Origin: Scenedesmus sp. PABB004
Taxonomy: Eukaryota
DNA: 64,000 bases
Reading direction: 5' to 3'
Assembly (NCBI GenBank): GCA_014905635.1
Contig: JABVCE010000022.1
Location: 310,001-374,000 of the forward strand
Made by a program: the position numbers and the translations under genes. Positions within the stretch are counted from its first letter, which is position 1, and every line of letters starts with the position of its first letter. Under the pieces are notes generated by a model, which saw only the letters and a list, made by a program, of their open reading frames with translations, searched no databases and was not told where the DNA came from. Below, piece after piece: positions 3,613-64,000 of this stretch.

Positions 3613-5474
3613 ATGCCCAGCATGGATTGCTGCAGCGCTGACATGGAGTCCGGTCGGGGTGAGTCGCGCTGATCCGGAGCAGCAGCGCGCGGGGGTGACG
3701 CCCGTCGCCCGGCGTCGCCGAGGGCGCGGGAGGCTGGGGCGCCCTGGGCCTCTCGCCCACAGGCCGCCGACGCCGCACGCCGCAGGCGCCGCGCCGGCGC
3801 GGTCCGAGTCGGCGGCCGCCGCCGCGGGCTGCCCGCCGGGCAGCAGCAGCCAGGGCGGCGACAGCCGGGGCAGCAACGACGCCGACGCCGCCGCCGGCGA
3901 CGCGGCGCGCCGCGGGAAGGCGCCGCCGATGCAGTGCCAGGTCGAGGGCTGCGCCAGCGACCTCACCGCGGAGGGCAAGGCGTACTGCATGAAGCGCCGC
4001 CTCTGCAACGAGCACATGCGCGCCGACGCCGTCGCCGTGCGCGACCGCCAGGGGCAGTGGCGCTTCTGCTTCCAGGTGCGGAGGGGGGCGGGGCGCTCGG
4101 GGGGCGCCGCAGCGCGGCCAAGCGGCGAGCCCGCGCGCCCGGTCGGTCGGTGCCGCCGCGCCAACGCGCGCCCGCCGCGTGCCCGCCCGCCGCCCGCAGT
4201 GCGGCAAGCTCGAGCCGCTGGCGCGCTTCGAGGGGCTCAAGCGCTCCTGCCGCGTGCGCCTCGCGCAGCGCAAGCAGCGCGAGACGCGGCGCTGCGCGTC
4301 GGACGTGGGCAACGCGTACGGCCGCGGCAAGGCCGCCAGCAGGGCCGGCAGGGCCGGCCGCGGCGCCGACGCGGGCGGCGGCGGCGGCGGGCTGCTGGCG
4401 GACCTGCAGCCCGAGCTGCTGCCGCGTGTGCTCGGGGGCGTCCTCGAGGAGGGCGAGGAGGAGGAGGACGATGAGGCGGAGCGCTACGACCTGCCCACGG
4501 GCGCCGGCAGGATGCTGCTGGCGCAGGCGACCAGCTTTGGCGCGCTGCGCCCGCCCGTGTTCCGCGGCGCCTCCACCGGCCACCAAGACATGCTCAGCCT
4601 GCTGCGCCAGGCGCAGCAGGCGCCCCACGCGCTCGACGGCCACGGCCACCACCACAGCACGCCGCTGCCCACGCTCGCGCTGGGCGGCGCGCGCGGCGCA
4701 CTGGCGCACCGGCTCAGCCTCGGGCCCGCCGCCGCCTGGTCGGACGCGTGCGTGTCGGCGCCGCTGCCGGCCGTGGCGGTGCCGTGCGGCGCGGGCCCCG
4801 AGGCGGCGGCGCTCGCCGAGCACCTGCAGCGCAGCGGCAGCCTGGCGGCCCTGGCTGCCCCGTCGCCGTGCAGCGGGGGCGCGTCGGCGCCGCTGCCGGC
4901 GCTCAGCGCCGCCGCACAGCACGCGTACGGCGGGCTGTCGGGCCCGCTGCCGTCCGGCGTCGCCGCCGCCACGCGCGTGGCGGCGGGCCTAGGCGGCATG
5001 TCGGCGCCGCTGCCCCTGGCGGGCGCGGCGAGCGGCGGGCCCCACGCAGTGGGGTGCGGGCTTGAGGCGAGCGCCGACCTGTGCATGCTGCTGCTGGACG
5101 AGCTGCTGGCGGAGTGCGGCGCCGGCGGCGGCGCGCCCCCGCTGCTGCTCGGCGACGACGGGCCGCCCGCCGACGAGGCGCTGCCGTACGAGGACGCCGA
5201 GCTGCGCGGCATCCTGGAGAGCGCTCTCGAGAGCGCGACTGGCGACGCGGCGCCGCGCGCGCTCCGCGCCGGCGACGCCTGGCCGGCCAGCAGCAGCAGC
5301 AGCCAGGCCGGCGGCGGGCCGTGGCCGGCGGCCGGGGCCTGGGGCGGCGCGCTGGCTGCGAAGCGCGAGCCTGGCCTGGACCTGCAGCAGCGGGTCGGGC
5401 ACGCGCAGGCGCGGCTGGAGCAGGTCCGGCTGGCGCTCCGCGTGGCCGACCCAGCCGCCTCGGCCTGCTCCTGA
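3613..5474 (+). CDS. Second SBP-domain transcription factor (tandem paralog)
   Basis: CQVEGCASDLTAEGKAYCMKRRLCNEHMRADAV...WRFCFQ|CGKLEPLARFEGLKRSCRVRLAQRKQR, with an intron at ~4076-4199. Start at 3613 (MPSMDCC, donor ~3659) is inferred. Confidence 0.88.
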
Positions 5475-17203: not shown

Positions 17204-19510
17204 ATGCTGGGACCGTCGAGAGCGGGCCTGGCGCGCTCCGGCCTGGCGCAGGTGCGGCGGCGCGGGCGCGCGGCTGCGGGGAGCGAGCGTAGTAGAACGG
17301 CGAAGCGAGCTGCTCCCCCCCCGGCTCGCAGGACCTGCCCCAGGCCGGTGGCGACTGCGAGAACGACTTTTTCATCTACGTCTTCAAGGTGCGCTGCCGC
17401 GCGGGGCGCCCGGCGCGCTGGGCGCGGCGGGGGCGGGCGATGAGGCGAGGCATCGGCGAGCAGCTCGCGCGCCAGGCAGCCCGAGGCGCCAGCGGCCCGT
17501 CCAGTGCCGCTCCAGCGCCCGGATCAAGCGCCAGACGGCGCCGCGGCAGCCAGGGACGCCGGGCGAGGGCGGGGCGGCCTTTATAGTCCCCCGGGCCTCG
17601 CCCGCCTCGCGCGCGCGTCCGGGCGGCGCCCGGCGGTGCGCCCGTGGCCTCGGGAGGGCGGGCGGGAGCGGCTGGAGGCAGCTTCGGCCAGCTGGTCTGT
17701 TGGAGGGTCCGGGCTGTTGTGGGCGCGACGCCGCCGGCCGGGCGTGTGGCCGCGCTCACCGCCGCCGCGCCGCCGCCCCCGTCCCGCTGCGCAGGTGCAG
17801 CCCTGCCCCAAGCGGTGAGCGCGCGCGCGCGCCGCAGCGGCCGCTCGCTGCGGGCGCAGGCGCGGGCTCGTGCGGGCGCCCGCCGGCGCAGCCCGCGGCG
17901 GCGCGCCCACACGCCGCCGCCGCCGCGCGCAGTGGCGCGCACGACTGGAGCAGCTGCCCCTACGCGCACCCCAAGGAGAAGGCGCGGCGGCGCGACCCGC
18001 GCGTCTACAAGTATGCCTCCACGCCCTGCCCCGAGAGCCTCAAGGTGCGGCGGCGCGGCGCGGCGGCAGCGGGCAGGCGGCGCGGCGGCGCGGCGGGCAG
18101 GCGGCGGTGGGGGCGCCGCTCGCATCGCGCGCGCGCGCGCACGCGCGAGCCGACGCGCGCCCCCGCCCCCGCCGCCCCGCGCGCGCGCAGGGCGTGAGCT
18201 GCGGCCGCGGCGTCGACTGCCACTACGCACACAGCGTGTACGAGTACTGGCTGCACCCCAGCCGCTTCCGCACGCAGGCGCGCGCCGCGCGCCCGCCGCG
18301 CCGCGCGGTGGCCGGCGCCGCGCGCGCCGCGCGCCCACGCCGCCGCGCCCACGCCGCGCCCACGCCCACGCCGCCCCGCCCCGTGCGCCGCGCCGCGCAG
18401 ATGTGCAAGAAGGGCAACCAGTGCAACCGCGCGCTCTGCTTCTTTGCGCACAGCGCGAGCGAGCTGCGCTTCCCCGAGACGGGCGACGACCTCGAGGCGG
18501 CGGCGGTCGACGCCGCGGCGGCGAGCGCGACCGCGGGCGCGCTGCCGCCCGCGGTGTGCGGCGCGCCGGCCGCGGTGTTCACGCCCGCGAGCATGCTCGT
18601 GCCGGGGCTGCCCGGCGGCTACGGCGCGCTGCCCAGCATCATGGGCCTTGGCCAGGTCTGCGGCGACGGCGGCGCGGCGGCCCACATGGCCGCGGCGCAG
18701 CTCGCGGCCATGGGCGGCGCCGGCTACGGCATGGTGCCGGTCGGTGCGCCGCCGCCCATGCTCGTGCGCCAGGACGGCTCGGGCGCGTACGCGCTCGGCG
18801 GGTCGGACGGCAGCTTTGCCGGCGTCGACCCCGCCAGCCTCAGCGACCCGCTGCCGCGCCTCGGCGGCGACGGCATGGGCGCGCCCAGCTCGGCCGCGTG
18901 GCTGCAGCTCGCGGCCGCCAGCCAGCTGCCGGTGAGCCAGGTCATGGGCGCGATCCAGCCCCCGCCGGCGCACGCGCAGTCGGCCCAGGCGCGCGGCCAC
19001 GCGCTCCACGCGCCCAACGCGCTCGCGCTCCAGCAGCAGGCGCGCGGCGCGGCGGCGGGGCTGCAGTGCGTGAACGCCGGCGCCGGCGCGGGCAGCCCCG
19101 GCGCCGGCGCCGACCACCTGGCCACGAGCCTCGCCGGCATGGCGCTGGTCGACGACAACAGCGCCAGCTCCTGCCTCACCTCCCTCTCCGGCGACCAGCA
19201 GTACCTCACCGTGTTGGCCGGCGGCGGCGGCGGCAGCAGCCTCGACCTGTCGTCGGCGCTCACGGGCGGCGGCGTGTCGTCGCCCGTCAAGGCCTCCGCC
19301 GGCATGGACCTGCTGCTCCTGCAGCAGCAGCTGCACGCGCAGCAGCAGGCGCAGCTCGCCAAGCTCGGCAGCGGCAGCATGGCCAGCACCGTCGCGAGCT
19401 GCGGCGCGGCCGCCGGCAGCCGCTCCTCGAGCGGCGCGCTCTCGTACCACCTCGTGCCGCCCATGCAGGCGCCGGCCGCCGCGGGCGGCTGGGGCGTGCG
19501 CATGGCGTGA
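17204..19510 (+). CDS. Plant-type RR-TZF tandem CCCH zinc-finger RNA-binding protein, 6 exons
   Basis: [39 protein letters not shown]...[58 protein letters not shown]. The last intron needs a GC donor at 18278. Confidence 0.92.
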
Positions 19511-20946
19511 GCGCGCCCGCGCGCCGCCCGGCGGCGGCGCAGCAGGGACAGCAGGGACAGGGACAGAGAGCGTGAGGATGAGTGTGAGACAGGGAGCGCA
19601 CAACCCAACCACCTTTCGCAGACGGCGGCGTCGGCGCACGGCGCGCCCGCCGGCGGCGGGCCGACGCCGCACGCATCACCGCGCTCTCGTTGAAGGCTTC
19701 TCTCATGACGGGGCTGCGCGCCGTGCGTGTGCTTTTTGATATCAAAAAAGCCTCGCACACATGCCCGCACGCCGTGCCGCGTGCGGCGCCCCCCTTGGTC
19801 AACCACGGTGGCAATGCACTCGCGCGCGTCGCGGGGGCTTCGGGCGCCTGGCGGCCGCCGCGCCGCTGCGCCGCGGTGCGCGCTCGGCAGTACTACTCCG
19901 TTGGACGCCGCCCGCCGCCCGCCTGGGCGGCGGCGGCCTGCCTGCTGGCTGGTTGTCGCATGTGTGTGTCGCTGGGTCTCGCTGGGTCGCCGCGCGACGT
20001 GCTGCGCGCGGCGTACTGCTCTAAACCTTCAACCCAACCCCCCGGTCCGCGTGGGCGCCTCGGGAGCTGCGCCGGCGGCTGGCTGGCGCGCGCGCCTCAC
20101 TCACTGTCGTGAGCTACACACGGCGCACTGCACTGGCCCGCCCCCGCGCGGGCGGGGGCGGCGCCACGGCCCGCCGACTGCCGCGAGTGCTCAACCCAAC
20201 CGCGCCCTGCGGCAGGCGCTCCGGTGATTTATGGTGCTTGCTTCCCCGCCGCGCTGCGTCTCTCTCCCTTGATGGTGGTGATGGCAACCCAACGCCCAGC
20301 GCGCGCCGCCGCCCGCCGGCCCCCGTGCGGGGGCCGGCGGCGGCGGCCGCGCTCTCAGTAGTAGTAGTAGCCACGGGCTCCTGCACTCGTGTGTCGTTGC
20401 CGCGCGCGCGCACGCCTACTACTTCAGTCGCCCCCATGCCTCGCCGCGCGGGCGCATGCCCGCGCGCGCGGGCCTGGCGGGCCGCTCGTCGTCGCCAGAA
20501 CCCCCACAACATCAACGCTTTGCCCAGCCCCCTCCTCCCTTGTCGGCGCAGCCGGCCGGACCCAACCGCCCCAACCCCACTGCCAACCCAACGCCGGGGC
20601 TTGACCGTCTGCTGCAGAAGGAAACGGGGTAATTGTCGCAGTAAAGTCGCCGCCGCTCGCGCGCGCCGCCGGTCGCGCCGCAACCCGCTGCCGCCGCCGC
20701 CCGCCTGTCGAGCGCGATCTGGGGCCCGGCCGCACTCTCGCAGTGCGCTGGCAGCGCGCGGGCGCGGCGCAGGCGGCCGCCCGGCCGTCTGCCCGCGGGG
20801 TTGCTGCTGCTGCGCTCCCACGTCCTCCGCCCGCCCGGCGCCCTCGCCGTCCAGAGGCGCTCCGCCGGCGTGATCGGCTGAGCTGCGATCGGCCGCCCGC
20901 CGCGCCCGCGCTGCTCTGCGGCGTCACCACTCGCAGCGCCAGCAGC

Positions 20947-22323
20947 ATGCTCGGCCAAGCGCCGCGGCTGCGCAGCCACGTGTCCAGCGCCGCGGGAGCC
21001 GCCAGCTGCTCGGCCGCGGGCCAGGTGGGGCTGCGGGGCCGGCGTCCGGGCGCGCTGCTGGATGCCGCCCGGCGCAAACGCCCTCACGGCGCCGTGCCGC
21101 CCCGCGCAGGCTCGCGCGCTCGGCCGCCCGAGGCGGGTCTCCGTGCGCTGCTTCCAGCAGCATGCGCCGCCGGCGGCGTCCGCAGGCGCGCCGGGGGCGG
21201 GGCGCTCGCCGCGAGGTCGCTTCACCCCGCGCCCCGCAGCGCGCGGCGCGGCCGCTCAGCCCGCCATCGCGCCTGCCCCGCAGTCGGCTCCATCAACAAG
21301 GTCAAGCTGAGCTTCAAGCTCCCCTATCACTGCACCTTTGGGCAGGAGGTCTGCCTCGTCGGCTCGGGCGAAGCCCTGGGCAACTGGAGCGTCGAGAACG
21401 CCAAGCCCATGCACTGGACCGACGGCGACGTGTGGGAGGTGGAGTTTGAGGTCACCACGGGGTGCGTGCGGCGCCGCGCCCCCCGCCGCGCCCCCCGCCT
21501 CGCCCGCGCGGGCGCCGCTGCTGCCGCGCGCGCCGCCCGACCGCGCACCGCCGCGCACCGCGCCGCGCCGCCGCCAGGCCCGAGGTCGAGCTGGAGTACA
21601 AGTACGTCGTGCGCAGCACCGACGGCGGCGTGCTGTGCTGGAAGCCGGGCGAGAACTGCCAGATCCGCGTGCCCGTGTGGCTGCAGGAGGAGAAGGCCAT
21701 CGCGGAGGGCGTGCTCGTGCGCGACGCGTGGGACGGCTCGCTGCAGGACATCGAGCTCGAAGTCACGGGCTTCACGCGCGCCGAGTTCACGGAGGAGGAG
21801 GAGCGCGCGGCGGTGCAGTCGGCGGTGCGCGCGCGGCGGCGCGCCCGCGCGCGCGCGGCGCCGACCGCGCCGGCAGCAGCTGCGCCAACGCCGGCGCCGG
21901 CGGCCCCCCTGCAGCCGCTCGCCGCCGACGGCGCGTGCTCTGCCCGCTGCGCGGCCGCAGGTCGACCGAGCGCTGCACGAGCTGTCGCACGCAATGACGT
22001 CGTCAGCGTCGGTGCAGACCAAGAAGCAGGGTGCGGCCGCCCGCCGGCGCGGCTGGGCAGCGGCGGCAGCGGCGGCAGCGCGGCCGCACCGGCTGCCGCC
22101 ACCGACCGCTGGCCGACGCGTGCTGCCGCTGCCCGCCCGCGCCCTCGCAGACCCGACCGCGCCGGAGGTGCTGCAGGCAGACCGCCTGGTCGCGGCCGCC
22201 GCGCGCAAGGCGGTGGCGATGCACCGCGCGTTTGAGGCCAGCAAAGCGCTGCAGGCGCTGCCCATGCCCGCGGGCCAGGAGGTGGCAGCCGAGCAGCCGC
22301 AGCAGCGCCCGGACGCCGCGTGA
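20947..22323 (+). CDS. CBM20 starch-binding-domain protein, probably plastid-targeted
   Basis: KLSFKLPYHCTFGQEVCLVGSGEALGNWSVENAKPMHWTDGDVWEVEF...LEYKYVV...WKPGEN is a CBM20 signature, followed by a helical C-terminus. The N-terminal exon structure is uncertain. Confidence 0.85.
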   Translation: MLGQAPRLRSHVSSAAGAASCSAAGQVGLRGRRPGALLDAARRKRPHGAVPPRAGSRARPPEAGLRALLPAACAAGGVRRRAGGGALAARSLHPAPRSARRGRSARHRACPAVGSINKVKLSFKLPYHCTFGQEVCLVGSGEALGNWSVENAKPMHWTDGDVWEVEFEVTTGCVRRRAPRRAPRLARAGAAAAARAARPRTAAHRAAPPPGPRSSWSTSTSCAAPTAACCAGSRARTARSACPCGCRRRRPSRRACSCATRGTARCRTSSSKSRASRAPSSRRRRSARRCSRRCARGGAPARARRRPRRQQLRQRRRRRPPCSRSPPTARALPAARPQVDRALHELSHAMTSSASVQTKKQGAAARRRGWAAAAAAAARPHRLPPPTAGRRVLPLPARALADPTAPEVLQADRLVAAAARKAVAMHRAFEASKALQALPMPAGQEVAAEQPQQRPDAA

Positions 22324-24937: not shown

Positions 24938-27900
24938 ATGGCGCACGGCGTCGTGCCCGCCGGCAGCGCGCTGCGCGGCGCCAACGGCTACCTTGGCGGC
25001 CTGCTCGGCGGCGGGCGCCGCGGCGACGACGAGCCGGCCGGCGCGGCCGCAGAGGAGCGGCAGTCGCTGCTCGCGGCCGGCGGCGCGGCGGCGTTTGAGC
25101 TCGGCCCCCGCGCCCCCGACGCCGCCGGCGGCGCCTGCCCGGGCCGCGCGCCGCCGCCGCCGCCGCGCCTGCCCGTGAGCAGCAGCCCCGGCGGCGGCGG
25201 CCCGCGGCCGAGCGGCGCCGGCGCGCGCGGCCGCGCGCCGCCGCCCGCGCCGCCGCTGCGCACCGCGGGCGCCGGCGGCGCGCCGGGGCGGCCAAACCTT
25301 GAGAGTCTCGACTATGAGCTGGCTGAAAACACAGTGTATCGCACAGACACGGCGGCGCGCACGCACCTCGACCACATCACAAAGTCGGGAGCCAAGTGGA
25401 GCATGTGCTTCGCGCTCGGTGCGTGCGACGCTGCGCGGGCGCGGGCGGGCGGGGCCGCGGTCGCGGCGCCGCCGCCCATGACTAGCGCCGCCGCGGCGCG
25501 CAGGCGTGCTGACCGCGGTCGCCGCGTTTGCCGTGAACCTGGGGGTGGAGAACCTCGCGGGCTTCAAGGTGCGCCGCCGGCCAGGGGCTGGGCCGCGCGC
25601 AGGCCGGGACGCCATGGGCCGGGCCGCAGCGCGCCCGGCCGCGCCGCCCGCAGCCGCCCGCCGGCCGCCGGCCGCCGGCCGCCGCCCACGCCGCCCCCCG
25701 CCCGCGCGCCGCCGCCGCCCGTGCGCCGCCGCCGCCGCCGCGCCCAGTTCTGGGCCACGCTGACGCTTCTCGACCGGGGCCAGGCGCTCGCGAGCTACGC
25801 CGTCTACGCCGGGACCAACGTCGCGCTCGTCACCGCGTCCGTGTGGCTCACGACCGCGCTCGCGCCCGCTGCGGCGGGCAGCGGCATTGCAGAGGTCAAG
25901 GTGCGCCGCGAGGGTTTGGGGCGGTGGGCGTTGGGGCGGCGGGCGTCTGGGCGGCGGGCGTTGGGGCGGCGGGCGTCTGGGCGGCGGGCGCCGGGCGGTG
26001 CCGGCCCTGCTCCCCCGTGCGCGCTGGCCCCCGCGCTGCGGACCCACCGCCGCCCTCCCTCCCCCCCCCCCCCCCCACACACACGTCACGCACACGTCAC
26101 GCGCACTCGCCAGGCGTACCTCAATGGCATTGACGTCCCCGGCATCTTCCTGTGCCGCACGCTCGCGGTCAAGCTGCTCGGCAGCGTCGGCGCGGTCGCG
26201 GGCGGGCTCGCCGTCGGCAAGGAGGGGCCCTTTGTGCACGCCGGCGCCGCGATGGGCGCGCTGCTCAGCCAGGCGCGCGGCGCGCGGGCGGCGGCGCGCG
26301 GGTGGCGGCGCGCGGGTGGCGGCGTGCGGGCGGCGGCGCGCCGGCGGCCCAACGCGCGCCGGCGGCCCACGCGCCGCGCCGCGCCGCAGGGCGGCACCGG
26401 CGACGCGCACCTGCCCTGGTTCAAGCGCTTCTGGAATGACCGCGACCGCGCCGACATGGTCGCCTGCGGCACCGCGGCGGGTGCGGCACCGCGCCGCCGC
26501 AAACGCGCCGCCGCCGCCGCTGGCCCGCCGCCGCCGCGGACGACGCGCCCGGCGGCGCGCGCAGGCGTCGCGGCGGCGTTCCGCGCGCCCGTGGGCGGCG
26601 TGCTGTTTGCGCTGGAGGAGATGACCAGCTGGTGGCGCAACCAGCTGCTCTGGTACGCCTTTTTCACCACCGCCGTCGTCAGCGTCACGGGTGCGCGCCG
26701 CGCCGCGTTGGCGGGCCATGGGGGGAGCCTCCCCTAGCGCTGCGTCACGCCGCCGCCGCCGCCGGCCCACGCGCCGGGCCGCCGCGCGCCGCCGCCGCGC
26801 CGCCGCCGCCGCCGCCGCGCCGCGCCGGCAGTGCGCACGCTGATGCGGCTGTGCAGCGCCGAGAAGACGGGCGCATGCGGGTTCTTTGGCGCGGGCGGGT
26901 ACCTGCTGTATGAGATCACAGAGGGCCAGGCGCGGCGGCGGCGGCGGTGGCGGCGGCGGCAGCGGCGCGGGGCGTGCAGCAATGGGGGAGAGAGGGGGCC
27001 GTGCAGGGCGTGTGGCCGGGGCTGGCGCGGCGGGCGCGGGGCGGACGTGCGCCGCCGCCGACACCGCCGCCGCCGCCGCGCCGCGTGTGGGCGCGCAGTC
27101 CAACTTTGAGGCGCTGGAGCTGCTGCCGATGCTGCTGCTGGGCGTGATCGGCGGCCTGCTGGGCAGCGCGTTCAACCACCTCAACGCCGCGCTCAGGTGC
27201 GGGCGCAGCATGTGCCGCGCGCGCGGCGTGCGGGCCGCGGCGCATGCAGCGCGCTGGCGCCGCGCTGCGCCAGGGGATGCTGTGGGCCACGGGCCGGGCC
27301 TCGGGCCACCGCCGGCTGGGCCCGCCCGGCGGCCGCGGCGGCGGTCGGCCGCCCGCGGCCCCGCAGCCCGCCGGCCCCACGCGGCCCGCCGCGGCCCGCC
27401 GCTGCGCCGCGATGCGCCGCGCAGCGAGGTGCGCAAGGCGCGGCTCGCGCGCCACGGCGCGCGCGGGCGGCTGTGGGAGGGCGCCGCGGCGGCGCTGCTC
27501 GTCTCGACCGTCTCCTTCTTGCTGCCGATGCTCGTGGCCTGCCGGGTGCGCGCCCGCGGCGCGCCGGCCGCCGGCCGCCGTCGCCCGCCCTGCCCTCCCG
27601 CGCGCCGTGACGCCGCCCGCCGCCACCGCTGTGCGCGCACGCGCGCGCGCGCGCGCAGCCGTGCCCGCCGGACGTGGCCGAGGGCTGCCCGCGCAGCGAC
27701 AACAGCCACAGCGGCAACTTTGTCGGCTTTGGCTGCGCCGCGTCGAGCCAGTACAACGACCTGGCGACCATCTTCTTCAACACACAGGCACGCGCAGTGC
27801 GGGGAGGAAGGGGCGGCGCCGCGCGTGGGCGGGGGCGGACAGAGGTGCAGGCGGCGCCCGCCAGGGCGGTCCCGCACGCAGCCGCCCACAGCTCCCGCCG

Positions 27901-30196
27901 CGCCGCGCCGCGCCGCGCCGCGCCTCCTGCCGCGCCCGCCAGGACGACGCGATCCGCAACCTCTTCAGCAGCCGCACCAAGGCCGAGTACGGCGTCGGCG
28001 CGCTCACGACCTTCACGGTCACGTTCTTCGCCCTCGCCGTCGCCTGCTACGGCCTCGCCGTGCCCACGGGGCTCTTCGTGCCGTCCATCCTCTGCGGCGC
28101 CGCGTACGGGCGGCTCGTGGGCGTGTTCGTCGCCGACATGCGCCCCGGCGCGACCGGCGCGATCGACGAGGGCACGTACGCGCTGCTCGGCGCGGCGAGC
28201 TTCCTCGGCGGCGCGATGCGCATGACGGTCGCGACGTGCGTGATGCTGCTGGAGCTGACCAACAACCTGCCGCTGCTGCCGATGATGATGCTCGTCACGC
28301 TCGTGGCCAAGGCGCGCGGCGCGCGCGCGCGCGGGGGCCCGGGGAGGGCTCAAGGGCCAAGGGTTCAAGGGCTGAGGGCGCTCAGGGCTCAGGGCTTAAG
28401 GCTCAGCGAGGTTTCACGGGCTGCGGGGCTTCCCTTGTGGGGCTCGACCAGGGCTCGACGGGGGCTGGCGCCCTCCCTGCGCGCGCGCCCCGCCTGCCCA
28501 CGACCGCCCCGCGCCGCCCCGCCCCGTGCCGCACGCGCCGCGCCGCGCCGCGCCGCGCCGCGCCGCGCGCAGGCTGTCGGCGACGGCACGGGCGTGAAGC
28601 CGCTGTACGAGAGCCTCATCGACCTCAAGGGCCTCCCCTTCCTCGAGCGCAGCCCGCACGGCCTCATGCGTCACATCACCGCCGCCGAGGCGGCCGGCCA
28701 GCCCGCGGTCAGCTTTGCGCGCGTCGAGCGTGTCGGCACGCTGCTCGCCGTGCTGCGCGGCACGCCGCACAACGGCTTTGCCGTGCTCGGGTCGGCGCCC
28801 GACGGCGAGCCGCACATCCTTGGCATCGTGCTGCGCAGCCAGCTCGCGGTGCTGCTGCGCAGCCGGCGCTGCTTCCAGCCGACGCCCTTCGTGTCGGAGG
28901 CGCGCCGCCGCCGCCGCGCCGCGCCGCCGCGCCCGCGTCGCGCCCCGCGCGCTGCGCCCGCGCCGCGCCCCGCGCGTCTCGCCCACCATGTCCCCCGCTG
29001 CACGCCCCCCCCCCCCACACACACACGCACACACACGCGCGCCCAGGTCGCGGGGCGCGTCGCGTTCAGCTACCAGCAGAGCGACTTTGCGCGCCCCATC
29101 AGCGAGCCGCCGCCCGACGCGGCCGGCCTGAGCCTGAGCGAGCAGGAGCAGGGCATGTACATCGACCTCGGGCCCTACGCAAACCCCAGCTACTATGTGG
29201 TCCAGGCGCGCGCGGCAGCAGCGGCGGCGGCGGCGGCGGCGCGCCCGCCCGCGGCAGCGCACCGCCGCGCGCGCCGCGCGCGCTGCTGCGCGGCGGCCGC
29301 GCCGCGCCGCGCCGGGCCGCGCGCGCGCGCGGCGGGCGCGCGCAAGGCGCCGCCCAAGCGCGCGCCGCCCAAGCGCGCGCGCCGCCCAAGCGCGCGCGCC
29401 GCCGCGCGCGCGCGCGCCGCCCGCGCGCGCGCGCCGCCCGCGCGCGCACGCCGCTCACCCTCTCCCCCCCCCTTCCCCCTCTTGCAGGAGGACACGTCGC
29501 TGGCCAAGGCCTACACGCTCTTCCGCTCCCTCGGGCTGCGCCACCTCGCCGTCATCCCCCGCGCGTCGGCGGTCGTGGGCGTCATCACGCGGCACGACCT
29601 CCAGGCCAGCGCGCTCGAGGCGACCTGCCTGGAGCAGCTGACGCTCGGCGCGGGTGCGCGGCGCGGCGCGGGGCGGGGCGGGGCGGGGCGGGGCACAACG
29701 CGGCGCCCGCCCACCTCGCGCGCGCGCCCGCGCAGGCGTTGCGGGGCTGGCGAGCGCGCTGCGCGGCACGGTGCGCGACGCGGTCGACGCGTACCAGCAC
29801 CAGGCGACCACCAGCAGCAGCGGCGCGCCCAGCCCGCCGCCGCCGGCGGCGACGGCGCTGCCGCCGCCGCTCGCGTCGCTGGCGCCGGGCCGCGACCGGG
29901 GCGGCGGCGGCGGAGCCGGCGGCGCCGGCGCGCAACGGCCGGGCGGCAAGGCGCCCGCGCGGCTGGGCAGCGGGGAGGCGCGCGGCACGCCCATGGCGGC
30001 CGCGGCCTCGGCGCTGGAGATCGCGGCTGACGGGAGCAGCTGCGGCAGCGGCAGCGGCGCGCTCGCGTGGGGCGCGCCGCCGCGCGGCGGCAGCGGCCGC
30101 CCCGGCTTGGCCAGCCGGCGCAGCTCGGCCAGCGACGGGTGGGAGGACTTTGACGCGCCGGACGGCGGCGGCGCCGCGCGGCAGGCGGCGCGCTGA
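24938..30196 (+). CDS. CLC family anion/H+ exchanger with two CBS domains (CLC-d-like), 15 exons
   Basis: ESLDYE, GSGIAEVKAYLNG, GKEGPFVH, AFRAPVGGVLFALEE, YNDLATIFFNTQDDAIRNLFS, PTGLFVP, RMTV, HNGF and LGLRHL motifs all assemble in frame using 8 GT and 6 GC donors. Confidence 0.96.
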
Positions 30197-30252
30197 CGCG
30201 GCGGGCCAGGTCAACGCGCGCAGCGCGCGGTCAAGGCGCTCGCGGCGCTGCG

Positions 30253-30257
30253 TGTAA
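30253..30257 (+). terminator. TGTAA chlorophyte polyadenylation signal of the CLC gene
   Basis: TGTAA lies 57 nt after the stop codon; UGUAA is the established major poly(A) signal in chlorophytes. Confidence 0.6.
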
Positions 30258-30421
30258 CCGCTCGGCGCAGCCAGGACCCGGCGCGGGCGCACTGCTGCGA
30301 GCAGCACGACCCCTGAAAAATGCCGCGGCCGAGCCGAGCCTGAAGCGCGCTGCCTCTTGCCGCGCTGCTCTGCGCGGGTGGCGACGCGCCCAGAAGCGGC
30401 CTCCCCCTCGCCACACGCGCC

Positions 30422-32602
30422 ATGGAGGGCTCGCCGCCGGACCCGGACGGCTCGTGCGCGGAGCTGGGCGGCGCCGCTGCGCCGCCGCCGCCGCGGCGCG
30501 GCCCCGGCGGCAAGTCCAGCCACGTCGCGTCCATGCGGTCGCTCGGGCTCCTCCACGACCTGCAGGCGCGCGCCGACCCTGCGCCGCCGACCTGCAGGCG
30601 GCGGCCGCCCGCTGCTCCGCCGCCGCGCCGCTCACGCGCCGCGCCGCATGCGCGCCGGGCCGGACCCGCGCAGGAATACGTCACGAGCTTGCAGGCCACC
30701 GCCGATGAGCAGGCCAGCGAGCTGGCGCGGCTGCGGGGAGAGAAGCGAGAGGCAGAGAGGGCGCGAGCAGCGCAGCGCGGCGCGCGCTGCGGCTCCCGCG
30801 CGCGGCGGCTCTCGCGCCGCGCCGCGCGCTGGCGCCCCGCGCCGGCTGGCGCCCACGGCGCCCGGCTGCGCCGGCGCAGGTGCTGGCCAGGGAGCGGGGC
30901 GCGGCGCCGGTGGTGCAGCACTTTGCCGCGTCCGAGGTGGCCGAGCTGCCGCCGCGGCTGCGCGCGCTGTTTGAGGATAACAAGGTGCTCAAGGAGCAGG
31001 CGCGGCGGTACAAGGCGCGGGCCGCCGACGCGGAGCGCGGCGCCGCCGCGGCGGAGCAGCAGTGCCTCGCGCTGCAGGCGGCGGTGCGGGCGCTCAAGCT
31101 GCAGCTGGCGGAGGGCGCGAGCAGTGCCGAGGCGCTGGCGGCGGAGGCGGGGCTGCGGGCGCAGGCCGACGCGGCCACGCGCGCGCTGGAGGTGCGGCGC
31201 CGCTGGAGGGCGCGGCAGTTGCCAGCTGCCACCGCCAGCCCGACCAGGCGCAGCCGGGTGCGGGCGAGCTGCCCCAGCCGCCGCCGCCGCCGCCGCCGCA
31301 GAAGCTGCAGCACGCGCACGCGGTGCTCGGCGCAAAGCTGGAGACCGACGCGCGGAGCCACCGCCAGGCGCTGGCGGCGGGCGCGCGCGAGCGCGGCGCG
31401 CTGGAGCAGCAGGCGGCGGAGCTGGCCGTGCAGGTGGAGGCCAAGGACCGCGAGGCGCGCGCCGCCGTGCTGGCCGCGCGGCACGCGCAGCGCGCGCTGG
31501 CGGAGGCCCGCGGCGCCGCCGCGCGCGCGGCCGCCGGCGCGGACGCGCGCGTGGCTGCCGCGGTGGCCGAGGAGACCGCGCAGCACAGAGCGGTCGCCGA
31601 CGCGCGCGTGCACCTCATGCTCTGCGTTCTCACCGACCACGGCCCGGCGCCGGGGCGAGGCGGCGGCCGCGACGCCGGCGGCGAGTACGCGCCGCCGCGG
31701 CAGCAGCTGGCAGCCGCGGCGACGTGCGGCGGGGGCGACGACGGGCCGGGCGGCGGCCCCGGCGGCAGCTCGAGCTTGGGCGCCGGCACCGGCGGCGGCG
31801 GCGCGCGCGCTGGGCCGCCCATGAGCCGAGCGGACGCGGCGCTCGTGCTCCAGGCGGGCGCGCGCGGGTTCCTGGCACGGCGCGCGCTGCGGCGGCAGCG
31901 CGCGGCTGAGCAGCAGGCGGCGGTGCTCATCCAGGTGCGCGCGGCGGCGGCGCGCCCACGGCGGGGCGCGCAAGGGCCGGCTGCGGCACCGCCAGCGCGG
32001 CGCCGGGCGGCGGCGACCCGGCTCACGCGCACGCGGCCGGCCCGCCCCGCCCGTCCGCGCAGGCGGGCGCGCGGGGCATGCGCGCGCGGCGGCAGGTGCA
32101 GGCAATGCTCCAGGCTGCGCAGCTGCCCGTGGCGCTGGCGTGCGTGGGCGGCGGCGGCGCGAGCGGGCGCGCTTCGTGCGCGGCCAGCCTGCCCATGGAG
32201 CTGCCGGCGCTCGAGCCCGGAGCGCAGCCGCACGAGGCGGCTGCGCGGCGCGCAGCCAGCTGCAGCGGCGCCGCGGCGGCGTGCGGCCCGGCGCGCGGCG
32301 CGGCGAGCCCCGCCGGCGGCGGCAGCCGGCGGGGGGCGAGCAGCAGCGGCGAGGCGCCTGGGGCGGGGCGGGCGGCGCCGACGGCCAGGGTCCCGCGAGC
32401 GCCGCTGAAGCCGCCCCTGCCACGGCAGGCCGGCTCTGCCTCGCCGCGCGTCGGAGGCAGGCCCGGCGGCGGCAGGGCTGCCAGCGCAGCGGCGGGCGGC
32501 GCTGGCGGCGGCGGGGCGGCCGGCGCCTCCCAGCGCTCGCAGCAGCGGCGGCCAGCGAGACCGGCGCAGCAGGATCTGCCGCCTGGCGCGGGCGTCGCTT
32601 GA
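30422..32602 (+). CDS. Coiled-coil protein with two IQ calmodulin-binding motifs (possible lebercilin-like segment)
   Basis: ELPPRLRALFEDNKVLKEQARRYK coiled coil; AALVLQAGARGFLARR and AAVLIQ|AGARGMRARR fit IQxxxRGxxxR. The 5' exon boundaries are uncertain. Confidence 0.65.
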
Positions 32603-37663: not shown

Positions 37664-38570
37664 ATGGCGCTGCCCGAGCTGTTCCGGCAACGCGGCGCCC
37701 TCACCGCGCTGCGCCCCGCCGCCGTGGCGGCGGCCGCGGACCGGCACGCCGCCGCGCAGGAGGACGCCAAGCCGCAGCTGCTCCTGCAGCTGGAGCAGGG
37801 CGTCGCGCGCGCGGCGCGCGCGGCCGCCGGCCTGCAGGGCAGCTGCGCGTGGAGCGCGCGGCGGCTGGCGCTCGACGCCCACCGCCAGGCGCGCGCGCGC
37901 GGGCCTGCGAGGCCCCCGACGCGCGCCGCCGTTCCGACGCGCGCCGCCGCCATTCCTGGCAGGCGTTTGACGTGTTTGTGTCGTGCATGACCACCTACCG
38001 CCCGCTGCTGCTGCGCGTCCGCGCCGCGTACGCTGCGGCGCTGGACGACGCACTCGCGAGCGCGCACGACCGCGTCGCCCTGTCCGGTCAGCTGTCGCTC
38101 GCGCCCGTGCGGCACGTGAGCGCAGGCGCGCAGTGCGGGCGCGCGGCGCAGGTGCGCGGGCGCGCGGCGCGCGGTGGGTGCAGGCGACACCCACCAGGCG
38201 CCGGTGCCGCCGCCTGGCAGGCGGAGGCGGTCGCGACGGCGCGGGCCGACGCCGAGGCGGCGGCGGTGGCGATGGCGCAGGAGCTGCAGGACAAGCTGGG
38301 CGAGCTGGAGCGCGCCGCGGCCGAGGTGCGCACGCTGCGCCATGCGGCGCTCGCCGGCCGCGCCGGCGCGCGTCGCGGCGATCGTGCGGTGCGCCCGGGT
38401 GCGCGCAGGCGGAGCGGGAGTGCGCCGAGGCGGAGGAGGCGCTGCAGTGTCTGCAGAGGACGGTCCTGCAGGCGCGGCGGGAGGCGGACCAGCTCCAGCA
38501 GTCCAACGCGTGCGCCGGGCGGGAGCTGCTGGCGGCCTCGAGCTGGGCGCACCTCGCCGCGAGCGGCTGA
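37664..38570 (+). CDS. TSNAXIP1 N-terminal-domain coiled-coil protein, 4 exons
   Basis: KPQLLLQLEQGV...RLALDAHRQ|AFDVFVSCMTTYRPLLLRVRAAY resembles the TSNAXIP1/CLHC1 N-domain pattern KPxFLxQLE...YRExFxxFIxxFKTYKPLLxxIKxxY. The first intron has a GC donor (37889). Confidence 0.72.
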
Positions 38571-43853: not shown

Positions 43854-44142
43854 CCGCTCGCCTGGGGCGCTGGCGTCGCCGCGGCGCGCTGAGCGCAGTT
43901 GCCTGCGCCGATCGCGCCGCCAGGCTGCGCGCCGGCGCCAGGCGCGGCGCCGCGCCGCCGCCGCAATCGGGCGCGGCGATTGCGCCTGCGCGCCGTGTGG
44001 CCTGCGCGCGGCGGCCGCCGCCAGGCCTCCGTGGCGCGCGGCGGGGCGCCAGCGCGCCCGCAAGCTCGGTCACACGCGTTCCCGCGCGCCCGTGGGCACC
44101 GATCACGGCAGCGCGGCTGCGAGCGCGGCGGCAAGCTCGCGC
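43854..44142. repeat. Direct repeat copy 1 (~290 bp; thioesterase C-terminal codons plus 3' UTR)
   Basis: Near-identical to 45983-46271 at a constant offset of 2129. Confidence 0.95.
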
Positions 44143-45739
44143 AGCCACGCCGCCTTGGCGGCCGGCTGCAGCGGCCACAGGTGGTGGCCCGCCACCTCGC
44201 TGGCGGTCACGGGGCCGTGCGTGCAGCCTCCCCACGCCTGCGCGACGTGCGGGCGCGCCTGGCGGGGCCCGCGCGGCCGGGCTGCACGCGCCGGCCCGCG
44301 GGCCGCGGCGCCGCGGCCCGCAGGCAGTCGCACCTCCACCATCGCGCGGGTCACGCGCCGGTCGGCGGCGCCCCAGAACAGCCGCAGCGGGAAGGTGAAG
44401 GCGCGGGGCGGGTCGGGGCTGCGCGGCGGCCGCGTGAAGGCGCGTCACGGCGGCCGTGGCGGGCCAGCGCGCCCGCGCAGCTCACCGACCGCCGGCCGGC
44501 CGGCCCTGGCGCCTCGCGGCGGCCACGTGAGCGGCGCACCTCGGCGCGTACTCGTCAAAGAGCCGGAAGTCGGCCCGCAGCTGCGCGCCGTACACGGCCC
44601 ACTGCGCCGGCGCAAACACCGCGTCCCTGACGTCCCAGCCGCGGCACTCCTCCTGCGCGCGCGCCGCGCCGCGCCGCGCGCGTGGGTGCGCCGGCGGCGC
44701 CGCGCGGCGCGGGCGCGCGCGCGCGCGCGCGCGCCTGGCCAGCGTGCGGCGCCGCCGGCACCTTGAACTGAGCCTCGTCCAGCGCCGCTTGGCGGCGCCA
44801 GGGCCGCGCCGCCTCGGGGATGCCGGGCCAGGGCATGGCCGACAGGCACGCGACGGCGGGCTCGGGGAAGCCTGCGCGGTGGCGGCCCGGTGGGGGCCTC
44901 CGCGGCGCGCACGGCGCGCGGCTTGGCGCGCGGCCGCCCAGCTTGTTTTGGCCGCGGCCGCCTGCGCAGGCTGCCGCCGCCGCGCGGCGCGCCTGCGCGC
45001 GTGCCGGCTGCGCACCCTCGGCGCGCAGGAGCAGCAGCAGCTCCCAGGCGGCCCAGGCGCCCATCGAGTGCCCGCAGACCGCCCAGGCGCCCGCCGCCGC
45101 CAGCGCCGGCGCGACGAGCGGCAGCAGCTCCCGCGCGACCGCCTGCAGCGTCGGCAGCGGCGCCTCGCGCGCGCGCAGGGCGCGCCCGGGCAGCTGCGGC
45201 GCGAGCAGCTGCCAGCGCCGCGCACGCGCGAGCTCCAGCAGGGGGCTGGGCGCGCGCCGCGCGCCGGTGCCCTCCGACGTCCACATGTCCTGGCGCCGCC
45301 GGCGGCGGCGGCGGGGCAGCGGGCGGGGCGTGGGCTCGCTCTGGCGCAGGACCCCTGCAGCCGCTCCCCCTGCAGCTGCCGCCGCCCACCTCGGCGCAGC
45401 CGGCGCAGTGGAACGCAATCACGACCGCCGCGGGGCGCGCGCATGCGGTGCGTGGCAGCCCCGGAAACGCGGCCGCGGCCGCGCGCACGTCGGGCGCGGG
45501 CCAGCGCGCGGCGAGCGCGGCGAGGTCTGACGGCGCGTAGTGCTGCCGCAGCTGCTCCTCGGTCCTGCGGTGCGTGTGCGTGGGACGCGCGCCGGTGCGC
45601 GCCGCCCGCGCGCCGCCCGCGCGCCGCACCAGCGCTCGAGCTCCTCCTCGCTCGGCTCCGGCGGCAGCGGCCTGCCGGCCTCCTCGGCCTCCTCGCGCAG
45701 CACCTCCAGCAGGTTGATCTTGCGCAGCAGGGCAGCCAT
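44103..45739 (-). CDS. Type II thioesterase (GrsT/TEII-like alpha/beta hydrolase), multi-exon
   Basis: FHCAG, QLPGRALRAREAP, GHSMG nucleophile elbow, LRADF, FWGAADRRV and GHHLWPL catalytic-His region, all in TEII order. Confidence 0.88.
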
Positions 45740-61453: not shown

Positions 61454-64000
61454 TCACTGCCAGGGCGTCTGGCAGTGCGCGCAGTTAGACTTGCCGCTCG
61501 TGGTGAACCACTTGTAGAGGCAGGCGGGGTGGAACGGCACGCCGCACTGGCGGCAGCTGAGGCGCGGCAGCTGGCCGTTGGCGGCAGAGATGACGCTGTA
61601 GCCTGGGGGCGGGCAAGCGCAGTGGGCGGGCGCAGCGGGTGAGAGAGGTGAGCGCTGCTAGGAGCAGCAAGAGGCGAAGAGGCGCGGTGGGGCGCGGTGG
61701 GGCGCGGCGGCGGCGCGGCGCGCACAGATGAGGCAGGGCTCGACGCCGGCAAACTCCTGCTCCAGGTTGGCGCGCCACATCGCGATCGCCTGCAGCAGGC
61801 CGCTGTTCTGGTTGCGCAGAAACACGGCGATGGAGAGCAGCCACTTGCGCAGGCGGCCGTCCTTGATGCCAACCTGCACGCGCGCGCGCCGAGCGCGGGC
61901 TGGGCGCGGCTGGCGGCCGCGCGCGGCTCCGCCGGCCGGCAGCCGCCGCGCCCTCCCTCGCCCAGGCCCGCGCAGGCGGCCGGGCGCGCGGGCAAGCGCG
62001 CGCAAGCGCGCACGCGCCTTGTTGCGGCACTCGACCTCGGCGGCGCGCAGCGGCGCGGCGGCGGGCAGCTTGACCTGCAGCTCGAGGCTCGCGCCGTCCT
62101 CAATCTCGAGCACCGCCGTGACCTCGCGCGCGGCGGGGCTCGCGCGCACGCGGAACGCGCAGCTGCCGCCGACCTCGCCGCCCGCGCCCGCGGCGTCGCG
62201 CGCGATCGCCGCAAACTCGGCCGCGAGGATGGCCGGCGACTCGTGCCGCGACGTGTAGGCCTCCACCGCCGCCGCGGCGCCGCGGTCGCGCAGGTCACTG
62301 AACCAGAGGCGCGCGCTCGCGGGCAGGCTGGACAGCACGCCGCGGTACGTCGCCGCGGCGGCGAGCCGCCAGCAGCCGGGGCTGGCCGGCAGGCCGAGCG
62401 CGCGCAGCGCGGGCGCCAGCGCCCAGGCGCCGCCGGCGCCGCCGCCGCCGCCGAGCGCCTGCAGCCGCGCGCACAGCTGCGCCTGCGCGGCGGGCGGCAG
62501 CGCGCCCGCGCCCCCGCCCGCGCCGGCGGCGGCGTCGGGCGCGCCCGGCTCCTGCCCGTGCTCCTCCGCGCCGGCGCCGGCGCCGCCGCGCGGCGCGCGC
62601 CGGCCGCGCGGGGCCAGGCCGATGAGCCCGACCACGCGGTCCAGCAGCTCCGGCACCAGCTCCGGCACGTCGCGCAGCGCCTGCGTGAGCCGCGCGCGCG
62701 CGTCCGCCTGGCGCGGGCCGAGGCCCGCGAGGTGCGCGAGAAGCAGCGCCCAGTGCAGCAGGTGCGCCTGCCACGGCCGCGGGCTGGTCAGGCCGGCCGC
62801 CATCTCGGGGCGCAGCCCCGCGCGGACGAGGAAGGTCGCCGGGTCGTCACCGACACCAAACTCCAGCGCCTCCGCGTCGCCCTCGTCGCCGCCGGCGTCG
62901 GCGGCGTGCGTGACGCGCGCCAGGCTCGCCGGGTGCAGCGCGAGCCGCCACGCGAGCGCCTGGAGCGGCTCGCAGGGGCCGTGGTGGTGCACCGCGCCCG
63001 CGCCGCCGCCCGCGTGCGCCATGGGCGCCGCCAGCAGCGCGAGGCAGCAGCTCACGGCGTCGACGCCCAGCAGCTCCAGCCGGTCGTCCGCCGCGGCGAG
63101 CGCCTTGCCGGCCGCCTCGTCGTCGGCGCCCGACAGGCAGCGCGCGAGCAGCGCCCACGTCGCGCCCTCGCCCGCCAGCGCGGCCAGCAGCGCGCCCGCC
63201 GCGTCGGGCCCGCAGCACGACGCGAGCGCGGCGGCGCCGCCGAGCGCGAGCAGCAGCGCGAGCAGCTCGCGCCGCGCCGACGCGAGCGCGAGGTCGAGCT
63301 GCGGCGCGCGGCCGGCCGCCTGGATGGGGCCCTGCAGCCCCAGCACCGCCGCCAGCAGCTGCAGGCCCAGCGACAGCGGGCGCAGGCCGAGCCCCGCGGC
63401 CGCGCCGCGCGCGGCGTCCGCGAGCGGCCCCGCGACGGCGGGCTGGCGCGCGAGCAGGCCCTTGCGCGCGAGGCGGCGCAGCAGCTCGATCGCCATCGCC
63501 GGCGTCATCACCGGCGCGTCGCCGCCGCCCGCCGCGGCAGCGGCGCCGCCGAGCGAGCCCGCCGCGGCGCACGCCGCGCCCGCGAGCCCGCCGGCGGCGC
63601 GCTCGACGTCGCGGCGCGCGGTGCTGAGCCGCGCCTGCGTGTCGCGCAGCACGACGTGCCACTCCGGCGCCGACATGTCCTGCCAGCAGTAGGCGACGCA
63701 GCAGAGCTGCAGCCGGCACAGCAGCAGCGGCATGGCGCCGCCGCCGTCGCCGCCGCCCGCGGCGGCGCCGCCCCCGCTCGGGCCGGCGCCGCAGGCGTGG
63801 CGCAGCAGCGCGGTGAGTCCCTGCCGCTCCACGCCCGTGCTCGCGCCCGCCGCCAGCGCGGGCGCGGGCGCGGCGCGGCCGTGGTGGCCCGCGTGCGCGC
63901 CCGCGTGCGTGGGCTCCTGATGCACCGGGAAGCACGCGACCGCCAGCTGCAGCAGGTCCTGCAGCTCCGCCGCCGCCGCCGGCTCGCTGCAGGCCGCGCC
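61454..64000 (-). CDS. LTN1: E3 ubiquitin ligase listerin, 3' portion (5' end outside the window)
   Basis: LPASARLWF, RWD-like domain, LRKWLLS...WRANLEQEFAGVEPCLICYSVI...LPRLSCRQCGVPFHPACLYKWFTTSGKSNCAHCQTPW RING. One GC donor at 62017. Confidence 0.95.

Follow-up and report, generated by a model that had tools for sequence, protein, structure and literature searches.

The CLC gene and its introns

The window analysed was a 64-kb stretch of Scenedesmus sp. PABB004 DNA (assembly GCA_014905635.1, contig JABVCE010000022.1, positions 310,001 to 374,000), with a GC content of 73-83% in 2-kb steps. A gene for a CLC-d-like chloride channel/exchanger lies on its + strand at 24938..30197. The gene model was built from homology and runs from start to stop through 15 exons and 14 introns, giving a protein of 1000 aa whose N-terminus and C-terminus are both common to orthologues. 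Exon 27943-28311 was 100% identical to the public protein "CLC-D [Scenedesmus sp. PABB004]". Pfam matches on the public gene model (P0001) were Voltage_CLC (PF00654, 3.8e-71) and CBS (PF00571, 2.9e-05), and exon 29488-29653 matched Pfam CBS by itself. The name CLC-d had been given by the sources to many of the 120 matches listed (name level only), and the best solved relative was Arabidopsis CLC-a.

Eight of the introns are of the GT-AG class and were placed on the + strand at 25419-25503, 25569-25747, 25901-26113, 26481-26564, 26691-26831, 27197-27424, 27546-27658 and 29654-29735, a span of 25419..29735. All eight begin with GTGCG, and the length of four is a multiple of three (3n). The remaining six introns are of the GC-AG class, and the original prediction of six GC donors among 14 introns was thus reproduced by the homology model.

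All six GC-AG introns are on the + strand and in phase 0. Intron 4 (26273..26389, 117 nt) reads cag/GCGCGCG at the donor and CGCAG/ggc at the acceptor; intron 7 (26930..27098, 169 nt) begins at cag/GCGCGGC and intron 10 (27788..27942, 155 nt) at cag/GCACGCG. These are followed by intron 11 (28312..28572, 261 nt, aag/GCGCGCG), intron 12 (28900..29046, 147 nt, gag/GCGCGCC) and intron 13 (29206..29487, 282 nt, cag/GCGCGCG). Each donor had been predicted correctly to the base: its G is the first intron base, it follows an exon ending in AG, and it reads GCGCG or GCACG. Introns 4, 11, 12 and 13 (117, 261, 147 and 282 nt; 4/6) are 3n and free of in-frame stops, and for these four an open reading frame alone is no proof against read-through.

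Evidence for the GC junctions

At each site all in-frame, stop-free donor/acceptor pairs ending in AG were enumerated and scored with BLOSUM62, the reference being the orthologue of Tetradesmus (P0004). At 6/6 sites the GC-AG pair ranked first. The best GT alternatives scored 13 to 49 units lower, the largest deficit being that at intron 7, and introduced an indel at every site. At intron 10 a GT at 27797, 9 nt downstream of the GC donor, would add three residues that are carried by none of the orthologues.

The spliced protein was also aligned using MAFFT with 10 orthologues, ranging from chlorophytes to moss. No gap fell at any of the six junctions in any orthologue covering them, which bears out the expectation that GC splicing restores conserved CLC sequence. 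The LLSQ/GG junction of intron 4, for example, was unbroken in 8/10 orthologues, these being the ones that cover that point. Transcript-derived orthologues of relatives (P0002, P0007 and P0029) were likewise unbroken across the junction positions they cover. On protein colinearity and coding statistics, the six GC-AG junctions are confirmed at the level of sequence, and splicing at the GC donors is predicted from them.

Four of the six segments (26273-26389, 28312-28572, 28900-29046 and 29206-29487) could in principle be translated, at least in part, as Arg/Ala/Pro-rich insertions. They are 3n and without in-frame stop, and the public model P0001 treats 26273-26389 as coding. This reading is very unlikely: no covering orthologue has an insertion at these points, coding potential is negative just past the donor, and the insertions would break up conserved sequence of the transmembrane part and the CBS domain. 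Three of the four segments are spliced out in the public model, too. Removal is obligatory for the remaining GC introns, 7 and 10, whose lengths of 169 and 155 nt are not multiples of three. Errors of sequencing or assembly, with GC in place of a true GT, are scarcely credible. Extreme GC content does hamper sequencing, but six independent T-to-C errors would be needed, each at donor position +2 and all in phase 0 after AG. The same pattern would also have had to arise in the listerin and CCCH genes described below, and at the orthologous intron 10 donor in a related contig of other source, which is GC as well.

Gene models and annotation

Standard gene finders had been expected to mis-model the gene, and this held in part. 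The public model P0001 is a chimera of the CLC gene and a downstream gene and keeps 26273-26389 in frame; on the other side, it splices 5/6 of the CLC GC donors correctly. A second public model, P0121, reads in frame through a GC-AG intron at 18278..18400 and is fused to a neighbouring gene. In introns of about 88% GC that are poor in stop codons, 3n GC-AG introns can be read through unseen, which is mainly an issue of annotation. Retained introns and gene fusions may contribute to the low published count of 7,092 genes (PMC12571836).

GC donors elsewhere in the window

A GC-AG intron was located by orthology in the listerin (LTN1) gene at 61874..62017 on the - strand (phase 0, aag/GCGCGTG...GTGCAG/gtt). 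Four orthologues (P0141, P0145, P0154 and P0143) continue straight over the junction, and positions 44 and 45 of the Pfam UBC_like profile abut across the splice. Use of a GT 4 nt downstream of the GC donor would put the conserved continuation out of frame. The intron at 18278..18400 (+ strand, 123 nt, cag/GCGCGCG...CGCAG/atg) belongs to a tandem CCCH zinc-finger gene and was identified by motif spacing. It is the sole consensus solution between the adjoining coding segments, and its removal leaves exactly 16 residues between the two fingers, the same inter-finger spacing as in the plant TZF motif (PMC8609832). A homologue search with 18398-19468 matched solely the alga's own public protein.

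Two further GC-AG introns on the + strand were taken from annotation. One is in the downstream part of P0001 (30566..30879, cag/GCGCGCG; the acceptor is uncertain and 30673 is possible), and the other, known from annotation only, is in P0121 upstream of a CBM20 domain (21186..21283, cag/GCGCGCC).

Outside the CLC gene, the 64-kb window held two validated, two annotated and five candidate GC donors versus 47 GT donors, a GC share of 4/51 to 9/56 (8-16%) in a census based for the most part on coding statistics for which the CLC gene itself was the training set. This baseline may be too low, as the census can miss GC introns inside long open frames. For the whole of this one 64-kb window, CLC gene included, the share was 15-21%. 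GC donors were enriched in the CLC gene, itself chosen post hoc, over the other genes of the window, with a Fisher p between 0.005 and 0.06 according to the way in which candidates enter the count. Among donors preceded by AG, 6/9 were GC in the CLC gene and 4-9 were GC to 21 GT in the other genes of the window.

For a hydrolase junction near 44512/44539, where the sequence is not conserved and alignment did not settle the splice site, GT was entered on the strength of its GTGCGCC consensus. A donor filter based on the drop in coding potential found each of the 14 CLC donors but also picked out numerous GC sites, some of them on the antisense strand of CLC exons, and was left out of the counts for that reason. 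A Pfam scan of small exons gave matches in just 5/92 segments. Rfam at gathering thresholds gave no match in the window, so no snRNA gene lies there.

Donor signal and exon context

All seven GC donors that were found without an AG condition follow an exon-end AG, compared with 24/55 GT donors (Fisher p 0.011); adding the two GC donors known from annotation brings the count to 9/9 (p 0.002). Within the CLC gene alone, GC was used at 6/9 AG-ending donors and at 0/5 other donors (p 0.03). The phase 0 of every CLC GC donor would follow from the third codon positions, which, at 95% G/C and 1% A, restrict an exon-end AG almost wholly to the codons CAG, AAG and GAG.

Downstream of the splice site, positions +3 to +6 did not differ between the GC class and the GT class. 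The two classes share a GYGCG consensus that is far from GURAGU, and both have C at +4 and +6, where the GC donors depart from the classical consensus. The only visible compensation for the +2 mismatch is the AG at exon positions -2/-1, and the argument for compensation is confined to these two positions. The six CLC introns begin with GC, end with AG and, through the exon AG, have the stronger donor match elsewhere that marks U2-type GC-AG introns. Their donors (GCGCG or GCACG) are without an ATCC-type box and so are not U12-type (U12 box as in PMC1557818). A branch-like box, T[GCA]A[CT], was present within 80 nt of the acceptor in only 4/14 CLC introns. Intron bodies are 82-94% GC, about 88% being typical, and stop codons are rare in them.

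Donors at orthologous introns in related algae

In related algal contigs 9/10 donors orthologous to those of the six GC introns were GT, and one was GC. The single GC donor is at intron 10 in a contig of 71% GC (L079), the same position being GT in L074. Orthologous donors were GT at intron 4 in L079 and L080, at intron 11 in four of four contigs (L001, L079, L080 and L074) and at intron 13 in L001, L079 and L080. Over all 27 junctions examined in these four contigs there were 22 GT donors, 1 GC donor and 4 unresolved junctions. A further contig, L002 (74% GC), was dropped from the comparison, as its orthologue is intron-poor and uninformative on donors.

The same intron positions thus form a series in which relatives of 58-64% GC use GT, the relative of 71% GC has one GC donor, and Scenedesmus sp. 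PABB004 has six. Because 9/10 orthologous donors are GT, the GC state of the six CLC donors is, on this comparison, derived in Scenedesmus sp. PABB004.

Proposed explanation and alternatives

The six sites are most probably ordinary U2-type spliceosomal introns whose donors changed from GT to GC under GC drive. The CLC intron positions would be old, being common to other chlorophycean algae, where the donors read GTGCG. A presumed mutation bias or GC-biased gene conversion would have pushed the nuclear genome to about 79% GC, and T-to-C at intron position +2 would have been fixed wherever splicing tolerates it. Judging from published work on GC donors, that tolerance appears to need an exon-end AG, which would keep the pairing of the U1 snRNA 5' end and offset the +2 mismatch. 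Other genes of the window would be subject to the process too, at a reduced rate. A uniform genome-wide rate fits poorly with 6/14 in the CLC gene against 4/51 to 9/56 elsewhere, unless the post hoc choice of the gene is allowed for.

The excess in the CLC gene over the 8-16% found elsewhere in the window would suit a functional cluster, in which weak donors leave room for alternative splicing or a regulated retention of introns and the gene is special in the genome. Retention of the 4/6 GC introns that are 3n and stop-free would keep the frame, and an enrichment of GC donors among alternatively spliced genes has been reported earlier for human, nematode and Arabidopsis (PMC2490688). The gene was selected post hoc, however, and among AG-ending donors the difference is modest (6/9 GC against 4-9 GC to 21 GT). 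A length of 3n is equally frequent among the GT introns of the CLC gene (4/8), and the orthologues of relatives have GT at the same positions, so nothing conserved is tied to the GC state. A function of this kind is improbable. At least as doubtful is an altered splicing machinery (U1 snRNA 5' end, or U1/U5/U6 proteins) that reads C at +2 like U, with GC-AG as a second canonical class. The GYGCG consensus in both donor classes, remote from GURAGU, and a branch-like box in only 4/14 introns, which leaves little recognisable signal, would agree with such a change. Against it, the U1 5' end matches the consensus in Aureococcus and M. pusilla, where GC-AG shares are comparable or higher (PMC3033335), and the strict need for exon AG is itself a prediction of standard U1 pairing.

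An unlikely but somewhat less remote reading is that the introns carry almost no classical signal (GYGCG donors, no branch box, bodies of 82-94% GC) and that GC-AG is a co-equal class whose density varies several-fold between neighbouring genes. If true, a co-equal class would point either to recognition altered through protein factors or U1/U6, or to local hotspots of GC-biased conversion at which individual genes have their splice sites rewritten.

Under the preferred reading, of ordinary U2-type introns shifted from GT to GC, the CLC gene is in all likelihood a strong example of an already described, genome-wide trait of very GC-rich algae, and not a gene-specific device.

Comparison with known systems

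The Scenedesmus sp. PABB004 genome has 78.5% GC and is the most GC-rich among the Sphaeropleales genomes compared (PMC12571836). The literature searched gave no account of the splice sites used by the strain. The phenomenon itself is already published for other algae; what the strain adds is a clean natural series of GC pressure rewriting donors, together with a simple, testable constraint, an obligatory AG at the exon end that imposes phase 0.

The original prediction called six GC donors in 14 introns extreme, against a norm of about 1%. The enrichment of the CLC gene within its window stands, with the range of p values and the post hoc choice given above. The norm does not suit this alga: it derives from animals and plants, in which U2-type GC-AG introns are 0.4-0.9% of introns (Sheth et al. 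2006, PMC1557818), and is set aside by the GC share of the other window genes and by the precedents in GC-rich algae.

In the closest of these precedents, GC-AG introns make up 39.6% in Aureococcus anophagefferens, 22.2% in Micromonas pusilla CCMP1545 and 7.7% in Chlorella sp. (Iwata and Gotoh 2011, PMC3033335). The authors tied the high shares to high G+C and reported an unaltered U1 5' end; two of the species are green algae. As in Scenedesmus sp. PABB004, a very high nuclear G+C goes with a large minority of otherwise ordinary GC introns whose acceptor is AG. Those algae have 64-70% GC, whereas Scenedesmus sp. PABB004 has 78.5%, and the share given here is from one 64-kb window. Pelagophytes are reported to have 14-17% GC-AG introns (bioRxiv 10.1101/2024.10.30.620910). 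The strict rule of exon AG and phase 0, a measurement of the present analysis, is absent from the passages of these sources that deal with the Iwata and Gotoh algae and with pelagophytes.

In Emiliania huxleyi, GC-AG accounted for 56% of 241 manually mapped junctions, and nine GC junctions were verified by RT-PCR (Feldmesser et al. 2014, PMC4028052). There too the shift from GT to GC is credited to GC content and ab initio models mispredict junctions; the authors also tie non-canonical splicing to frequent intron retention. E. huxleyi is a haptophyte with a GC majority and has transcript and RT-PCR proof of its junctions, whereas the present alga is a green alga with a GT majority and its CLC junctions are predicted from the genomic sequence.

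In animals and plants GC 5' splice sites have a better consensus match at the remaining positions, and orthologous introns often switch between GT and GC (PMC1557818). The CLC introns resemble these in their apparent use of the major spliceosome and in the offsetting of the U1 +2 mismatch at other donor positions. They differ in that animal and plant compensation includes positions +3 to +6, whereas here it is confined to the exon AG, and in a frequency that is at least ten-fold higher.

Materials and Methods

The CLC gene model was built by enumerating donor/acceptor pairs at each exon boundary and scoring the joined translation against the CLC orthologue of Tetradesmus obliquus (P0004). The resulting protein was aligned using MAFFT with ten orthologues, including three transcript-derived sequences from relatives and those of Chlamydomonas, Raphidocelis and Physcomitrium. 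Related algal contigs were taken from a metagenome scan, and multi-exon CLC orthologues were present in four of them: L001 (58% GC), L074 (61% GC), the Chlamydomonas-like L080 (64% GC) and L079 (71% GC). Exon-end context was assessed using GC donors found without an exon-end condition (n = 7; six in the CLC gene and one in the listerin gene, LTN1).

Results

The translation of exon 27943-28311 was 100% identical to the public protein "CLC-D [Scenedesmus sp. PABB004]" (P0001, 1572 aa). A protein search with this exon gave 1164 matches at E ≤ 0.001 among 2201 candidates; among the 120 listed, P0001 was followed by proteins from Scenedesmaceae, from other chlorophycean algae and from land plants, many of which carry the name CLC-d in their source records. 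The nearest relatives of solved structure were Arabidopsis CLC-a and human CLC-6 and CLC-7.

The CLC gene model ran on the forward strand from the ATG at 24938 to a stop at 30195-30197; its 15 exons, separated by 14 introns, encoded 1000 residues. All eight GT introns began with GTGCG. Six introns began with GCGCG or GCACG, with first bases at 26273, 26930, 27788, 28312, 28900 and 29206 (+), exactly as in the original prediction, which had also correctly described all six as phase 0 with an exon ending in AG. The GC-AG pair was top-ranked at 6/6 sites, the best GT-AG alternative being 13-49 BLOSUM62 units worse with residues gained or lost, and no covering orthologue in the MAFFT alignment had a gap at these junctions. 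By inference from this colinearity with orthologues, the six predicted GC-AG junctions were confirmed. Intron length was a multiple of three in 8 of the 14 introns (25419-29735, +; binomial P 0.058 against one third). A T[GCA]A[CT] sequence within 80 nt of the acceptor was present in only 4/14, and a branch-point box common to the CLC introns was not found. Poly-C and CA-repeat tracts lay directly before the acceptor in several introns (3, 12 and 13), and intron 3 contained short tandem repeats.

The four related contigs contained 27 CLC junctions, of which 22 had GT donors, one a GC donor and four no clear assignment. The donor orthologous to that of intron 4 was GT in L079 and L080, that of intron 11 was GT in all four contigs, and that of intron 13 was GT in L001, L079 and L080. 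Intron 10 had a GC donor in L079 and a GT donor in L074 and was absent from L080; no intron lay at exactly the position of intron 7, and intron 12 had no clear counterpart among the four. The sole GC donor was thus in the most GC-rich contig. The counterparts of the six GC introns in these contigs thus had 9 GT donors against 1 GC, so the intron positions are old and the GC donors derived.

GC donors were also located in other genes of the window. A GC-AG intron in the listerin gene (62017-61874, -) was crossed without a break by four orthologues, and the Pfam UBC_like profile continued from position 44 to 45 over the junction; the following intron was GT. In a tandem CCCH zinc-finger gene, a 123-nt GC-AG intron (18278-18400, +) was the sole consensus solution joining the coding segments on either side, and once it was removed the two fingers stood exactly 16 residues apart, the spacing given for the plant TZF motif (PMC8609832). 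Two GC donors, at 21186 and 30566 (+), were known from annotation in public models only. The coding-statistics census added more GT donors and five candidate GC-AG introns (31455-31583, +; 37889-37962, +; 56954-56849, -; 43118-42895, -; 39199-39061, -), each with exon-end AG, GCGCG and a CAG acceptor, and each the sole in-frame consensus solution between coding-like segments. An alpha/beta-hydrolase (thioesterase-like) gene had five GT introns by orthologue alignment and one ambiguous junction, and a mitochondrial-type L3 gene had four GT introns in a clean open model. In two adjoining genes (377-1890 and 3839-5450, +) an SBP DNA-binding domain was split by a GT-AG intron.

Outside the CLC gene there were 47 GT donors; GC donors numbered 4 when firm and annotated ones were counted and 9 once the candidates were included (8-16%), a baseline that may be too low because the census was trained on the CLC gene and GC introns within long open frames can escape it. 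The CLC proportion (6/14) exceeded this with Fisher p 0.005 (4 GC) or 0.06 (9 GC), for a gene picked post hoc.

Exon-end AG preceded 7/7 GC donors vs 24/55 GT donors (p 0.011), and 9/9 when the two annotated GC donors were added (p 0.002). Codon position 3 was 95% G/C and 1% A, so that an exon-end AG is practically limited to CAG, AAG or GAG (phase 0) or to a codon-internal AG (phase 2).

The public models were compared with these structures. P0001 spliced 5/6 CLC GC introns but kept 26273-26389 as coding, adding 39 residues. It also took a false GT donor at 30139 within the last exon, skipping the conserved C-terminus and stop, and was a chimera (30139-30393 and on to 32599, +) of CLC and downstream exons. 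The prediction that gene finders would mis-model this gene therefore held for one retained intron and the fusion, but not for the five donors spliced correctly. The downstream gene had weak Lebercilin-like and IQ-motif Pfam matches. A second model, P0121 (17204-22320, +), retained the GC intron 18278-18400 in frame as 41 coding residues and merged the zinc-finger gene with a CBM20 starch-binding-domain gene across a 1.4-kb "intron" (19507-20937). In the nearest listerin models (P0132, P0133, P0135 and P0139) homology ended directly after the residues preceding the GC-AG intron of the window, followed by short unrelated tails, and P0007, a transcript-derived CLC relative, read on beyond the intron-11 position; in these relatives the corresponding introns seem to be either retained or mis-modelled. 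Both Tetradesmus and Scenedesmus sp. NREL 46B-D3 had clear orthologues of the hydrolase gene (44085-45712, -); no identical PABB004 protein was returned among public proteins of 157-2000 residues, so the gene may be unannotated or mis-modelled.

Discussion

Four of the six CLC GC introns are a multiple of three in length and contain no in-frame stop, so read-through would leave the frame intact. These four may be retained in frame, though this is improbable: no orthologue has an insertion at those points and coding potential falls at the GC donors. That the GC donors are assembly errors is implausible in view of the context common to all GC sites. That the GC donors serve regulation, or that the spliceosome is adapted to them, is possible but unlikely, and neither reading gained support here; no snRNA genes were found within the window.

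In other species, GC 5' splice sites are described as fitting the U1-complementary consensus better elsewhere, offsetting the +2 mismatch (PMC1557818). In this alga exon-end AG would likewise compensate the mismatch through U1 pairing. Together with codon composition, a need for AG explains both phase 0 and the exon-end AG.

The main use of the finding is as a caution in annotating the Scenedesmus sp. PABB004 genome, tabulated at 39.8 Mb, 78.5% GC and 7,092 genes (PMC12571836); G+C was 73-83% across all 2-kb steps of the window. No description of its splice-site usage was found in the literature searched. High GC-AG shares are in print for other algae: 39.6% in Aureococcus, 22.2% in Micromonas pusilla and 7.7% in a Chlorella, in a survey that gives the U1 5' end as unchanged (PMC3033335); 14-17% in pelagophytes (preprint, bioRxiv 10.1101/2024.10.30.620910); and 56% of 241 junctions in E. 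huxleyi, attributed to GC content (Feldmesser et al., PMC4028052). The observation of six GC donors is correct and the CLC gene stands above the rest of the window, but calling 6/14 extreme overstated the rarity, given 8-16% in the window and the shares published for other algae. The CLC GC donors add a further case, from a still more GC-rich genome, to a phenomenon already described.
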